Shown here in pieces: positions 1 through 11,735 of a stretch of 64,000 nucleotides of DNA. The notes under the pieces were generated by a model. It was not told the DNA's origin. It did no database searches and saw nothing but the letters and a program-made list of their open reading frames with translations. Origin of the DNA: an uncultured Verrucomicrobiae bacterium (GTDB lineage: Bacteria; Verrucomicrobiota; Verrucomicrobiia; Limisphaerales; Palsa-1400). The translations under genes were made by a program, and so were the position numbers. The stretch is from NCBI GenBank assembly GCA_963702845.1, contig OY969763.1, forward strand, positions 4,832,001-4,896,000, read 5' to 3'. Positions within the stretch are counted from its first letter, which is position 1, and each line of letters begins with the position of its first letter.

Positions 1-586
1 TGGTGGGTGTGTTTGGGTTGTCTTTGTCTTTGGGGCGAGCCGGGAGGCGAGGCGGTTGTCTTTACGGGCTCGCGTTGGCGCGCGTTCCCTAGCGGGGGAG
101 GGGGCGAAGTGTTGCTAGCTATTCCGAGCGCGCCTGCCCCCTCCCCCAGCAGCCCGCGTCGACCGCGAATGCGGAACTGTAAACGTGGTCTGGGGGAGGG
201 GGCGCGGGGGCGGGAGCGGGGAGCGCGCGAGGGGGGCAATGCGCCGGTGCGCGAGGGGGAAAATGGGCGGGTGCCGCCGGCGTGCGGCGGGGAAATCAAG
301 GCGGCGAGAGACGCTGGATTATATGAGCAAAGCGAACCGATGTTGTCTTTGTAGCGCTGTCGGACGGTTGAGGCGTTTGATTCGGTTGGAGGGCTAACTG
401 ATGCCGAAGGTTCGTACCAATTGAGCGGGTGGCGGCTGGTCTGCTCTCACTGACGTCGAATTGGAATGCGCAGAACAGATGCCACGCGCGCAACTGACTT
501 TGTCTTTGTGGGATGTTGGATAACCCGAAGCGGCGGTTAACTTGATCTGGCTGGTTCGGCCTCACAGTTTATCCCGATGCGGTTGA

Positions 587-853
587 TCATGCTGCCTGGA
601 GTGCTCGTGAGTAACTACGCATCGTCACGAACCACATCCCAAGCCCCCAAATAAAGCCGCCAGCCAGGCAAAGTCCAACAATGAAATACGGCGGCAACGC
701 CTCCTCTTTGTGCGACACGTGTTCATAGATGGTGCCAAAAACTGCCATAGGAACACCCCAACCGAGGACGCCCCGCAGCAACACAAAACGCCAAATGCCT
801 CGTTCCTTGATTCTTTGCCATCTCGCTAATCGCAACGTTCGGATATCGCTCAT
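587..853 (-). CDS. Small two-TM membrane protein, integron-type cassette gene
   Basis: 88-aa ORF with two hydrophobic segments. Preceded on the - strand by a GTTAGGC core (862-856) and followed by a GCCGAAC inverse core (560-554). Confidence 0.7.
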   Translation of the reverse strand: MSDIRTLRLARWQRIKERGIWRFVLLRGVLGWGVPMAVFGTIYEHVSHKEEALPPYFIVGLCLAGGFIWGLGMWFVTMRSYSRALQAA

Positions 854-855
854 AC

Positions 856-957
856 GCCTAACGCCGAGGTCAGCGACGGGAGCCAGCCGCCCCTGACGTC
901 TGATTTGTCTCCTGAACCGAACGGCTGGCTCCCGTTCGCTGCACCGTCTTATTCGCC
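856..957 (-). mobile_element. attC recombination site (slightly degenerate)
   Basis: On the - strand: R'' GGCGAAT, L'' GGTGCAGC, imperfect palindrome (GGGAGCCAGCCG...CGGCTGGCTCCC), L' GCTGACC, R' GTTAGGC. L'' carries the characteristic extra G. Confidence 0.8.
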
Positions 958-1610
958 ATATTCTCGACCTGCTTCCACAGTCTCTCCCTCGCGTAACCCT
1001 CGATAAGACTGTACGACGAGCCCTTCCATTCCAATGTTTTCCAAGCCGACGATAAAAGGATCTGGTGGAATGCGTTACTGGCAGTGGTTAAAGTGGGTTG
1101 CACGTAAGGTTTCGTGCGGAAGACTCCATTTGACGCACAATAAACAAGATAGCTACCCGCCCGCTCTGCCAAGCCGCCCAGATTATAGCCGAGCGTCATC
1201 GACAACGGTACACCGTTGGTGATGGCAAAGGGCAGGTTGGGCCAAGTCTTAGGAGGCATCGACTCGTAAGGGACTCCGCTGGGGGCACCAAGGCGTGGTT
1301 CACGTAGGGGCAGCGACGGGTTCTTTTCCACGAAAACCAGCCGGCATAAAAGACAGATGCGTTCGTTCGCCTTCTCCTGCTCATCGATTGACTCCCACTT
1401 TTTGCCCGCCAGTTCTTTGAGATGGTCAAAAGCGGAGTCTCGTCCCGCCTTTATGAACGTGTTCGCGCACTCGGCGGCTATATCGGGTCGGAACTCCGAT
1501 GCCGCGATTTCTGGGAACCGCGACACCGCGCTTTCCATGTCGTTGGTTGCCGCGTTCACCGAAATAACCAGCAGTGCAACAAACGCGATTGCTTTTGCGA
1601 ATAGTGTCAT
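870..1610 (-). CDS. Secreted hypothetical protein, cassette gene; C-terminus reads into attC
   Basis: Signal-peptide-like N-terminus. A GTTCGCG core sits immediately before the ATG (1617-1611). The last ~29 codons (MANKTVQRTG...) are encoded by the attC. Confidence 0.7.
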   Translation of the reverse strand: MTLFAKAIAFVALLVISVNAATNDMESAVSRFPEIAASEFRPDIAAECANTFIKAGRDSAFDHLKELAGKKWESIDEQEKANERICLLCRLVFVEKNPSLPLREPRLGAPSGVPYESMPPKTWPNLPFAITNGVPLSMTLGYNLGGLAERAGSYLVYCASNGVFRTKPYVQPTLTTASNAFHQILLSSAWKTLEWKGSSYSLIEGYARERLWKQVENMANKTVQRTGASRSVQETNQTSGAAGSRR

Positions 1611-1853
1611 CGCGAACTAGTGATTATGCGACGGGGTGTCGCGGTCATTTTGATATACGAACGGTTGGTTCATATTGGTTGAGGAGATTATTGTTATGCT
1701 GGCGCTGCGAAGCAAGCGCAACACAACGCGCTCGCGAGCACGGCGACGACATACCGGAGATTCGCGATTGAAGTGGAGTGCGTAGCGGAGGGTCGACGGC
1801 ACTGGGCGCGTGGCAAAAATACCGCAAGCTTTATTGCAGACCACTGAGGCTCT

Positions 1854-2294
1854 CTATTCGTAGCGGCCCTCTGTTGTGTCCGTATACCAGAACTCCGGCT
1901 GCGCCCAAACATACCAGTGATCACCCACTGGGCGAAAACGCCGGACATACTGAGGGAAATGGTTGGTGGTCGGATTGTAGGCAATACCGTAATAGTCGTG
2001 GTGGAACTCGTCACCGAGGAGGACATAAAGGATGCCCCCGCTGGTCTTTGCTTGAAATTGCTTGCCACTCCATTTCTTCCAAGGAAGCCCTGTGATATAT
2101 GTCTTCGGCTCCAAATCCTCCCAATCAAGCGTTTCCTCTTTGTTAGTGAACATGTCCCACCCATTAGTCGCTATGAAACTCGACACAGAGGCAAGTGCGT
2201 TCGAGCCTTTAATGTCGGGTCTTGGTGTTCGCCTCCATTTCGGCGTACATCCGACAAGCAGGATCGCGATGCATAGAAACATGGAACGCGACAT
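1854..2294 (-). CDS. Putative lipoprotein, probable cassette gene
   Basis: Lipobox-like LLVGC after a hydrophobic stretch. A core-like ATTAGGC (2306-2300) lies just upstream of ATG 2294. Confidence 0.6.
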   Translation of the reverse strand: MSRSMFLCIAILLVGCTPKWRRTPRPDIKGSNALASVSSFIATNGWDMFTNKEETLDWEDLEPKTYITGLPWKKWSGKQFQAKTSGGILYVLLGDEFHHDYYGIAYNPTTNHFPQYVRRFRPVGDHWYVWAQPEFWYTDTTEGRYE

Positions 2295-2503
2295 GTTGCG
2301 CCTAATATTCAATATGCTCCAACTGTTCGCATAGTTTTAATCCGCGAACAAGGGTTTTTGCGGTTGTCCTAAAAGCTGTCAAGCTCGGATGGGACGTTAC
2401 TGCATGCCGGTTGGTGCAGCGGAACGGTTGCTGCGTGCATCGGCGTGCATGTGGTTTCTGTAGCGGGGCGATAGCGTTAAAAGAGTCATGATACGGTTCT
2501 TCA

Positions 2504-10572: not shown

Positions 10573-10886
10573 ATCGTTTTTTGATCATTGTTCCTGCGGA
10601 AGATCGCGATCGTGCCAACTCGGTTGCTGCGGAGCAATTCGACACAACGGGCGGCGCTCGGACTTTCTTCATCGGCATTTCGGCCAGCGGACAAGCGCCT
10701 GCGACGCATTATTGGTGCTCGGCTCAATTTACTGATGAGAACGCAACGAAGCTCGCTTTGGCTCAGGCGGATTTTCCGCTCGCGGTGGTGCAAGGCTACG
10801 ACGCCGATAGCGACGCGGGGTTTCCGCAGCGGACCATTGCGACGTTGGGATTGAAACAAATTGTGAGTTTGCCTGAAAGGACCTGA
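10569..10886 (+). CDS. Small phage protein, possible fibre chaperone
   Basis: Translationally coupled on both sides; contains a PATHYWC motif. Confidence 0.6.
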   Translation: MNRFLIIVPAEDRDRANSVAAEQFDTTGGARTFFIGISASGQAPATHYWCSAQFTDENATKLALAQADFPLAVVQGYDADSDAGFPQRTIATLGLKQIVSLPERT

Positions 10887-11509
10887 TGGCGCTTGTCGTT
10901 ATCAAAGAGGATGGAACGGGTTTGCCGGATGCGAACAGTTACGGCGTGGCAGCGGATGGCGACGATTACCACGCCGCGCATCTATACGCGTCCGCGTGGA
11001 GTGGTGCTACGGCCGGCAACAAGGATATTGCGCTCGTGATGGCAACGCGGCTGATCGATGCCCACTGTGAATTTCTGGGGTTCCACAAATCGAATGCGCA
11101 AGCATTGCAATGGCCGCGCGTCCAGGTGCCCGACAGGGAAGCGAGTGGTGTCTTTTGGGCGCCGGGTCTGGTGATTGGGCTCGGGCCTGCGGCGCCATTG
11201 TATATTTCGAGCGACGTTGTTCCGCCCTGTGTCGTTGCAGCGACGTGTGAGTTGGCGCGAGAGCTTCTGATCACTGACCGGACGGGGCCGCCTTTGGGAG
11301 AGGGTTTGAAATCGACTTCGGTTAAGACGGCAACCTCAAGCAAACCGGTGGGGACGACTGGCGTCGCGACTTCTTCCTCGTCGGCGTCCGCTTCCGTGTA
11401 TGATAAGTCGGATCGGCGGCCAATTTTAACGCCCGTTGTGGAGGCTTTAATGAGGCGCGTTCTCGCTGGGAGCCCCGGCAAATCGACGGTGAAATTGATT
11501 CGGACGTAG
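10886..11509 (+). CDS. Head-tail adaptor (SPP1 gp15/'DnaT-like' family)
   Basis: EDGTGLPDANSY, AL..ATR.ID, QALQWPR and VP..V..ATCELA motifs. Confidence 0.8.
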   Translation: MALVVIKEDGTGLPDANSYGVAADGDDYHAAHLYASAWSGATAGNKDIALVMATRLIDAHCEFLGFHKSNAQALQWPRVQVPDREASGVFWAPGLVIGLGPAAPLYISSDVVPPCVVAATCELARELLITDRTGPPLGEGLKSTSVKTATSSKPVGTTGVATSSSSASASVYDKSDRRPILTPVVEALMRRVLAGSPGKSTVKLIRT

Positions 11510-11510
11510 A

Positions 11511-11541
11511 TGTGTTTGTTTGTGTTTGTGGATGTGTTTGT
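11511..11541 (+). repeat. Three TGTGTTTGT direct repeats (possible integrase arm sites)
   Basis: Copies at 11511, 11521 and 11533, ~120-150 bp from the tRNA 3' end. Confidence 0.5.
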
Positions 11542-11619
11542 TTTTGAACCCCGTTTTTCCCTGTTTTCGCCTTATTTCAACACATGACCCCGAAAAGGGC
11601 AGACATCAATAAAACCCAA

Positions 11620-11654
11620 TAAAAACGGCCCTAAAACGTGTGTTCTAGGGCCGT
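11620..11654 (-). terminator. Intrinsic terminator downstream of tRNA-fMet
   Basis: On the - strand: ACGGCCCTA...TAGGGCCGT followed by a T-run. Confidence 0.65.
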
Positions 11655-11658
11655 CAAT

Positions 11659-11735
11659 TGGTTGCGGGGCTGGGATTTGAACCCAGGACCTTCAGGTTAT
11701 GAGCCTGACGAGCTACCAGGCTGCTCCACCCCGCG
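11659..11735 (-). tRNA. tRNA-fMet (CAT)
   Basis: Cloverleaf CGCGGGG...CTCATAA...TTCAAAT...CCCCGCA-A-CCA with a C1:A72 mismatch. Confidence 0.95.

Follow-up and report, generated by a model that had tools for sequence, protein, structure and literature searches.

Gene content and boundaries of island E5

The DNA analyzed here is a window of 64,000 nucleotides (contig OY969763.1, positions 4,832,001 to 4,896,000) from an uncultured Verrucomicrobiae bacterium of the order Limisphaerales (Verrucomicrobiota), whose genome (G000) comprises 6.03 Mb in one contig with a completeness rating of 89.8%. Coordinates are window positions unless marked genome, G000 or L001. The element under study is E5, an island of 29,072 bp (genome 4,814,637-4,843,708), the right 11.7 kb of which occupy window positions 1..11708 (Table 1). 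E5 is a bounded insertion with intact, motif-bearing genes under purifying selection, and the same design recurs in four sister islands and in dozens of other genomes. We tentatively read it, with close to an even chance of being right, as an integrated head-only island that would act as a helper-dependent capsid-forming satellite with integron cassettes as passengers. SPP1-type ancestry is the best reading of its origin, while its packaging and its spread with the help of another phage are predictions from its genes.

The island ends at a tRNA-fMet gene and carries a 61-bp duplicate of the tRNA 3' end at its far side. The C1:A72 mismatch in this tRNA-Met(CAT) is what we take, from the sequence and the textbook rule, to mark the initiator type. 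The 25-bp repeat TGTGTTTG is internal to both ends, with the far copy 55 bp inside the other end of E5. An earlier note on this DNA had remarked on repeats resembling att arm sites, and the pair does match the expectation for integrase arm sites, their putative function. A promoter scan returned sites no commoner than in shuffled sequence. In an empty-site check the flanking gene was found in 3/3 same-family genomes, yet without the tRNA or queG within 1.5 kb.

The left part of E5 (17.4 kb, outside the window) encodes a tyrosine integrase, a HigBA-like pair, GIY-YIG and QatC-like cargo, three helix-turn-helix genes, a primase, an AAA_25 helicase, terS and terL. Integrase, terS, terL and the tRNA-fMet duplicate were thus found left of the window, where the earlier note had suggested searching for them; intI, sought in the same place, was not. 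R-K-HxxR-H-Y residues were found in the integrase and Walker A/B and nuclease motifs in TerL, the catalytic motifs of these enzymes. The best phage matches of TerL, ~30% identical, do not settle the packaging mode. Neither inside nor outside the window did domain and profile scans of the open reading frames (ORFs) of E5 reveal tail or lysis genes. The QatC-like gene (682 aa) gave a PADLOC match at E 2e-55, below the NCBIfam cut-off; with an upstream 243-aa gene (L001 8798-11670) it possibly constitutes anti-phage cargo. The stretch from helicase to terS contains a HEAT-repeat gene and the beginning of another AAA_25 helicase (L001 15129-16186), which both match sister island E1 with 73% DNA identity, a trace of exchange between co-resident islands.

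In the window, the portal, scaffold, capsid, decoration-like, LamG-like and adaptor genes named by the earlier note were found as open frames with family matches. Judged by their sequences, the 207-aa product is likely a head decoration protein and the LamG/concanavalin-like protein a likely head fibre or receptor-binding domain. The predicted fold of the 105-aa protein has two uncharacterized viral look-alikes and is not a gp16-type barrel; Foldseek gave no PDB match for it at E 0.001, and the ESM Atlas no usable match. The predicted model of the adaptor Ad1 (mean predicted local distance difference test score 80) aligned best with adaptors, namely YqbG (Z 6.7, root-mean-square deviation 5.0, 99 aligned residues), the Mu neck subunit (Z 6.5) and HK97 gp6 (Z 6.0), and the top 19 rows were all phage adaptor, neck or portal-tail entries. 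Its beta-hairpin tip is lengthened by a Ser/Thr-rich loop. The Ad1 stop codon lies 149 bp before the tRNA gene, in line with the ~150 bp given earlier.

Table 1. Annotated features of the right part of island E5 in the window
Feature	Position	Strand	Basis or remark
Truncated attC, first box, behind 88-aa cassette	554..560	-	read from sequence; covariance model without match
Cassette ORF, 88 aa, one predicted membrane helix	587..853	-	no family
Intact attC	856..957	-	29.2 bits; bottom-strand DNA fold z -5.0
Cassette ORF, 246 aa, N-terminal hydrophobic stretch, runs into own attC	870..1610	-	no family
attI-like unit A, extra base in core spacer, phosphoketolase gene-end piece	1611..1796	-	31 copies in G000
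Cassette ORF, 146 aa, lipoprotein-type N-terminus	1854..2294	-	62% identical copy elsewhere in chromosome
attI-like site B, crossover reads ATT (degenerate here)	2300..2375	-	46 copies in G000
Portal protein (DUF4055, phrog_145)	2504..4153	+	domain and PHROG match
Portal 3' end, first copy of direct repeat bracketing second array	4119..4147	+	repeat comparison
attI-like site C, intact GTTAGGC crossover	4236..4328	+	9 copies in G000
Cassette ORF, 107 aa	4346..4669	+	no family; 48% identical relative elsewhere in chromosome
Intact attC	4674..4769	+	73.6 bits; bottom-strand DNA fold z -2.9
Cassette ORF, 115 aa, three predicted membrane helices	4758..5105	+	ORF call
Collapsed attC remnant	5101..5145	+	read from sequence; fold z 0.2
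Cassette ORF, YcxB-like, 168 aa	5168..5674	+	domain match
attC left half, cut at portal-end duplicate	5682..5719	+	read from sequence
Second copy of portal 3' end	5720..5755	+	matches portal end of sister island E3
Orphan cargo gene, 360 aa	5751..6833	-	no attC seen, no family
Head scaffolding protein (phrog_206)	7032..7835	+	PHROG match
Major capsid protein, Gp13-like (phrog_247)	7963..8970	+	43% identical to SPP1 gp13
Decoration-like protein, 207 aa (phrog_18828)	9016..9639	+	weak resemblance by features (0.81) to crAss auxiliary capsid protein
Conserved small protein, 69 aa, Arg/Pro-rich	9636..9845	+	no family match
LamG/concanavalin-like protein	9790..10572, alternative start 9694	+	domain and PHROG match
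105-aa protein	10569..10886	+	predicted ferredoxin-like alpha/beta fold, unlike gp16-type stopper
Head-tail adaptor Ad1 (phrog_477), last gene	10886..11509	+	PHROG match, structure comparison
Arm-type repeat TGTGTTTG, 25 bp	11521..11545	+	24/25 direct copy at element's far end
Terminator-like hairpin behind tRNA	11624..11655	-	hairpin prediction
att core	11648..11708	.	59/61 identical to genome 4,814,637-4,814,697
tRNA-fMet, a tRNA-Met(CAT), integration target	11659..11735	-	tRNA call

Sister islands, relatives and selection

Five complete terS-to-Ad1 modules are present in G000, each with its own integrase and att duplicate. E5 occupies tRNA-fMet, E1 and E3 occupy tRNA-Thr, E4 tRNA-Asp and E2 tmRNA. 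The sisters measure 32.5-55.4 kb and the five islands overall 29-55 kb, the left end of E1 being uncertain. Ad1 is the final module gene in E3 and E5; in E1, E2 and E4 it is followed by genes for a membrane protein and a lipoprotein. For nine packaging and head genes of E5, comparison with those of E3, the nearest copy, gave dN/dS values of 0.05-0.18 (dS 0.24-1.0), the comparison that the earlier note had suggested. The head genes of E5 are under purifying selection, and, E3 also ending at Ad1, selection continued after tail loss.

The block ending at Ad1 recurs in many other genomes. At E 1e-20 a capsid match was obtained in 33/200 other genomes of the order, ~27 of them with at least 60% identity, and close relatives are present among viral-fraction or virus-predicted IMG/VR contigs, records that may be integrated copies. 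The survey of relatives covered 65/80 genome loci, 43 of which have Ad1 and at least 2.5 kb after it. Its tail-part profiles were built from tailed relatives; some surveyed loci coincide with the DNA from which the profiles for stopper, fibre and membrane protein were made, and others are near-copies. Profiles for neck-1, terminator, tube and chaperone matched at 0/65 loci, including all 43 with the longer flank. Behind Ad1 these 43 carry a stopper (10/43), an Mtd-type fibre (7/43), a membrane protein (29/43) and a lipoprotein (28/43). A family-blind PHROG scan of 71 genes past Ad1 at 20 loci detected a full neck and tube in L032 only (capsid 63%), along with a stopper at the contig end of L033, five weak stopper matches and five fibre-type 'tail' matches. 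As a positive control, the PHROG scan detected full necks and tubes beside more distant capsids (L032, L034, L035, L038, L055, and L056). No tape measure, tube, sheath or baseplate was found among 82 further long ORFs downstream of Ad1 at 45 loci; these yielded fibre N-termini and one Ig/Hoc-repeat protein, and several remained unnamed. In the closest relative, L138 (capsid 94%), the portal adjoins the scaffold and a RelA/SpoT-domain gene directly follows Ad1. The terL-portal gap holds 2.8-6.5 kb of varied cargo in 27/27 relatives measurable within the 10-kb flank, consisting of two near-core reverse-strand genes and varied nucleases, methylases and toxin-antitoxin-type cargo.

Tailed phages with the same adaptor family exist (L032, capsid 63%, Ad1 45%), and tail-less rows nest within tailed phages in the capsid tree. 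The larger capsid tree grouped 28 rows at 91/93, of which 25 are tail-less and three have too little flank. In a smaller quick tree the tailed L032 did not fall outside the tail-less rows, and one clade was neither rejected nor shown (approximately unbiased test p 0.46); a single origin of tail loss is not proven.

Decay of a tailed prophage through a tail deletion near 11510, an option raised by the earlier note, would agree with this descent from tailed phages, with the broken remnants in E5 (a helicase fragment and degenerate att sites) and with the missing gap genes of the family described below. Both att ends are nevertheless intact, and Ad1 marks the module's end, exactly or nearly so, in the five islands as well as in other genomes, where different DNA follows. 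Five islands at five sites and the same end with different following DNA elsewhere do not fit a one-off local deletion. Neither of the two outcomes that the earlier note named as refuting was obtained: the rest of the element has no tail operon, and many other genomes share the end at Ad1. Persisting selection and the recurrent Ad1 end refute decay as a recent local event, and decay is overall hardly credible. A distinct head-only lineage with DUF4055 portal, scaffold and Gp13-like capsid, also proposed at that time, is supported by the recurrence of the same Ad1 end in many genomes.

Several side observations concern the islands. A polar 16-18-bp motif, GTTAGCAC[AG]CGGCCAC and variants, occurs in 4-6 copies in each of 4/5 islands (window 7147-7163, 7838-7855, and 8972-8989; L001 13001, 16125, 16221, and 19142; E1, E2, and E4). 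It has the orientation of the late genes, and some copies lie in frame inside scaffold, portal and terS. Of the exact copies 11/14 are in islands, and the motif is essentially absent from the related loci of other genomes. L084 (G104:C111) contains two head islands tail to tail within 12 kb. Stand-alone terS-terL pairs or lone terS genes with no portal or capsid nearby were found at G000 2,814,196-2,816,502, 6,002,575-6,004,757, 2,924 k and 5,404 k.

The neck and the supply of tails

A membrane protein with one helix and a lipoprotein directly follow Ad1 in 28-29/43 relatives, many with a lipobox and C-terminal helices (L005 15575-16608 and relatives). Two lipoprotein types occur, one of them with 2-3 C-terminal membrane helices. 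The topology of the pair is holin-like and spanin-like; the PHROG match to a bacteriocin/holin-type family reached only E 7e-4. In E5 itself no membrane pair, ejection protein or endolysin was identified, and the region after Ad1 in the relatives likewise contained no identified endolysin. Five stopper-keeping members (L076, L077, L078, L079, and L083) lack a tube; their stopper carries an acidic extension at its C terminus, and Mtd_N fibre genes come next. In these members the fibres may sit directly on the neck.

In SPP1, beta-hairpins of the adaptor form a barrel that binds the stopper, which retains the DNA and faces the tail (PMC9701221). Phage-inducible chromosomal islands that form capsids (cf-PICIs) encode an adaptor and a connector for tail capture, and these set the choice of tail (10.1101/2025.02.11.637232). 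The reading of E5 as a helper-dependent satellite predicts the following course. Upon induction, E5 would excise, replicate and fill its own SPP1-type heads; a co-resident tailed phage would supply lysis and the head-closing or DNA-injecting parts, most simply its stopper and tail.

A number of results weigh against this reading. The stopper that cf-PICIs use for tail capture is missing in E5 and in 33/43 relatives; a profile that detects the stopper Hc1 in 10 relatives found none in E5 or G000. Because of this absence, it is not established that E5 borrows tails as cf-PICIs do. With means of 0.38-0.39, the adaptor hairpin of the 7 tailed and the 9 stopper-bearing members is hydrophobic; that of the 42 members lacking a stopper is polar (0.26) and has either been cut down to a conserved motif or, as in E5 and L138, been lengthened by a loop rich in Ser/Thr. 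The Mann-Whitney p of 2e-6 for this comparison, from which the short adaptor L213 was dropped, counts kin as independent, and 1-2 independent pairs give a sign test p of 1. The change would fit a loss of stopper docking, and within these 1-2 independent contrasts the polar hairpin argues against docking of a helper's stopper. Searches of G000 by tube family, tape-measure model, baseplate J and proteins or profiles of tailed relatives detected no tail gene and no helper phage. A phrog_161 search of G000 gave no match; its controls were also without match, so it carries no weight. Across the order, head islands (~27/200 genomes with a close capsid) outnumber matching tail genes, as tube genes of the L032-type tailed family occur in 10/201 genomes, five of them with stops in a match. 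Finally, the five G000 islands lack two small gap genes that are kept in 24/27 and 22/27 relatives, and these copies may be impaired by the loss.

The same neck could instead point to transfer without a borrowed tail, in which a remodelled adaptor ring closes the head and head or neck fibres bind the cell or a helper virion; co-entry with a helper and pilus or vesicle uptake are conceivable routes. The members form a stepwise series of neck loss from tailed, via stopper and Mtd-type fibre without tube (7/43), to adaptor only; most have a conserved hairpin form of their own where the stopper is missing; and the membrane protein and lipoprotein are kept behind Ad1 in the 28-29/43 relatives mentioned. 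MiniFlayer, a capsid-forming satellite, attaches to its helper via short fibres (PMC10690885). According to PMC9701221, on the other hand, no known head closes without stopper, nozzle or cap, and in E5 no stopper, membrane pair, ejection protein or endolysin could be identified. We consider this route rather unlikely. A more far-reaching version, in which a lineage with the HK97 fold shed its tail permanently (tube and tape measure first, then the stopper), closes its head by the adaptor ring, enters cells tail-less and in this host also ferries cassettes and attI units between IntI-less cells, seems unlikely. Helper dependence is ranked first, with real weight left on tail-independent entry.

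The lack of a helper in G000 could also be explained by a role inside the host cell, with head and adaptor proteins acting as decoys or interfering with assembly while the island spreads by other routes. Its cargo, which includes HigBA-like, QatC-like, GIY-YIG, HEPN and nuclease genes, is compatible with such a role, and purifying selection is a sign of function, not of virion formation. This explanation is improbable, given that terS, terL, portal, scaffold, primase/helicase and integrase are conserved together, for which packaging of the island's own DNA is the best explanation; the close relatives in viral-fraction or virus-predicted contigs, possibly integrated copies, also speak against it.

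Comparison with known systems

The cf-PICIs EcCIEDL933 and KpCIDSM30104 (PMC10085698; 10.1101/2025.02.11.637232) likewise combine integrase, small regulators, primase/helicase, terS, terL, portal, capsid and adaptor in one island, and they share with E5 the absence of a tail and the cargo regions beside the packaging module. E5 is a chromosomal island with integrase, regulator, primase-replicase and its own terS, terL, portal and capsid. Instead of an HK97-type protease module, however, it has an SPP1-type capsid with scaffold and DUF4055 portal, and decoration and LamG proteins are added. The scaffold lies between portal and capsid, and no ORF matched either the prohead protease or the HNH family, the latter described beside terS in cf-PICIs. 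Ad1 is present and the connector (stopper, Hc1) missing. E5 has neither tail nor holin, although many of its relatives carry what we take to be a holin-like gene, which the cf-PICI model forbids. At 29,072 bp, within a family of 29-55 kb, it also exceeds the ~10-18 kb of cf-PICIs. In its design E5 works like a capsid-forming satellite, and it falls outside strict cf-PICI membership by protease/HNH, connector and size; uptake of a helper's tail is predicted.

The SPP1-like siphophages (SPP1, phiFL3A; contigs L032 and L034) have capsids 43-63% identical and the same portal, scaffold and adaptor families. In those with Ad1-Hc1-Ne1-Tt1 necks, the adaptor is followed by stopper, neck, terminator, tube and chaperones, whereas the E5 clade lacks these; E5, with no stopper, neck, terminator, tube or tape measure gene, is no such tailed prophage. 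The Streptomyces satellites MulchRoom and MiniFlayer (PMC10690885) carry, like E5, head and packaging genes and no tail tube, and the short fibres of MiniFlayer resemble the Mtd-bearing members of the E5 family. They differ from it by their size of 15-17 kb, their terminal repeats and the absence of primases, and no search showed a relationship to them. Three further candidates were set aside: phiAH14a is no tail-less precedent, as it encodes a full tail (PMC4936722); EPIPs have a tape measure and tails (PMC12822802); and the small HK97 genomes without a portal are another matter (PMC13669383). No description of the E5 family was found in a literature search in which subscription papers were thinly covered and supplements of satellite surveys could list members.

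Capsid-forming satellites are known from few lineages, and in the E5 family the design would have arisen separately, from SPP1-type ancestors; the family is widespread in a single order of Verrucomicrobiota and has five copies in one chromosome. Its members, with stopper and fibres or with adaptor only, form a series on which one can test the minimum that a phage-type head requires for holding and delivering DNA. If the tail were indeed lost permanently, this would amount to a tail-less bacterial duplodnavirus-like agent.

Integron cassettes in E5

The earlier note described attC arrays on both sides of the portal. Cassettes do flank it, while 'arrays' is overstated, as two attC are whole and three are remnants. 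The intact pair lies 3.7 kb apart on opposite strands with the portal between, forming two mini-arrays with one intact site each. DNA folding of two remnants gave z values of 0.2 and -1.0. The covariance model used for scoring was built from 8 sites outside the window, 6/8 of them from islands; it is host-trained, and divergent attC may escape it. Two simpler scans were too strict or too blunt, missing some known sites, and were replaced by this model. Since it matches the same kind of site beside intI in 11/30 complete-integron loci of relatives, the window sites are true attC-type sites.

Three attI-like sites and a repeat of the portal 3' end had been overlooked. The direct repeat (4119-4147 / 5720-5748) flanks the second array, and its outer copy is identical to the portal end of E3; from this duplication, the array would have entered as a block. 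The three attI-like repeat families, whose copies in G000 (31, 46, and 9) were counted by profile, end exactly at cassette starts. As is characteristic of attI, their cores consist of an inverted box, a short spacer and a GTTRRRY crossover immediately ahead of a cassette, and recombination by IntI is predicted for them. Patterns placed the core in 47 of the 86 copies (39 not placed). Among these 47, GTT is present in 42, an ATG follows within 35 nt in 46, and a co-oriented attC lies within 1.5 kb downstream in 25, with an opposite attC nearby in 0. The type A core is nearly that of the site preceding a true intI in L111, no direct match to types B and C was obtained among 30 intI loci, and the box-4 nt-GTT layout recurs ahead of several other intI genes. 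Three type A copies begin right at an upstream attC crossover (184-188 nt), and type A resembles a cassette that has no gene, ends in attI and carries a phosphoketolase 3' fragment. The median identity of its copies, 89%, suggests a recent spread.

No gene in G000, one contig rated 89.8% complete, matched TIGR02249 over the cut-off, whereas 67/201 genomes of the order have a match. With the IntI of 13 relatives as queries, only two XerC/D-like genes were found in G000, and 0/114 island loci contained IntI. E5 accordingly has no intI beside attI, as a complete integron would, and its two intact attC without intI nearby conform to a cluster of attC sites lacking integrase (CALIN, at least two attC). 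In this copy 3/5 attC and 2/3 attI-like sites are damaged. CALINs are common in IntI-less genomes (PMC4889954), attC clusters without IntI occur inside prophages and phages, among them one with an attI at its head in a cryptic prophage of Shewanella (PMC9892861), and delta-attI cassettes of a related kind undergo recombination in class 1 integrons (PMC12901181). E5 resembles these cases in having attC clusters without IntI in phage-like DNA; G000 differs from them by ~86 attI-like sites of three types over one chromosome in which no IntI turned up, concentrated in head-only islands.

Across G000, the ~86 attI-like sites and at least 51 attC form many small clusters; the attC search scored 150/1283 candidates and missed even the site at 856-957, so that 51 is a lower bound. 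The islands make up 3.5% of the DNA and contain 37/86 attI-like sites and 16/51 attC matches, an enrichment biased by clustering of the sites, by attI seeds taken from E5 and by the 6/8 training attC from islands. With this bias, the figures would agree with a dedicated shuttle, a family evolved for collecting and moving integron cassettes, as would the terL 3' fragments joined to site B that are scattered outside the islands. At the family level the shuttle is largely refuted. The host-trained model matched attC at 4/80 related loci (2/29 in the first set), sites A, B and C were absent from the related loci of other genomes, IntI was absent from the 114 loci, and the sites of E5 are damaged; we regard a shuttle as very improbable. 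The lack of IntI in G000 and in the island loci and the rarity of attC rather show that E5 carries its cassettes passively, having been loaded in this host lineage, and is no machine for shuffling them. Of the earlier proposal that the element collects and packages cassettes, passive carriage in this host stands and active collection does not.

How the cassettes arrived can be proposed for the helper-dependent satellite as well. IntI acting in trans in the recent past of the host lineage would have multiplied the attI-like sites and loaded cassettes into the pre-existing terL-portal cargo gap of the family, the second array arriving as a block and duplicating the portal 3' end. G000 shows a build-up of cassettes in packageable islands without resident IntI, and the route of spread is proposed from few examples.

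Other observations

Short terL 3' fragments, often joined to site B, lie inside and outside the islands, in G000 near 398 k, 1543 k, 1717 k, 2361 k, 2817 k, 3447 k, 3667 k, 4294 k and 5419 k. A second integrated element of 7.3 kb occupies window positions 15332-22628 at tRNA-Arg(CCT), with an integrase (15464-16783), primase fragments and a 48-bp att duplicate at genome 4,854,581-4,854,628; it resembles a PICI-like remnant.

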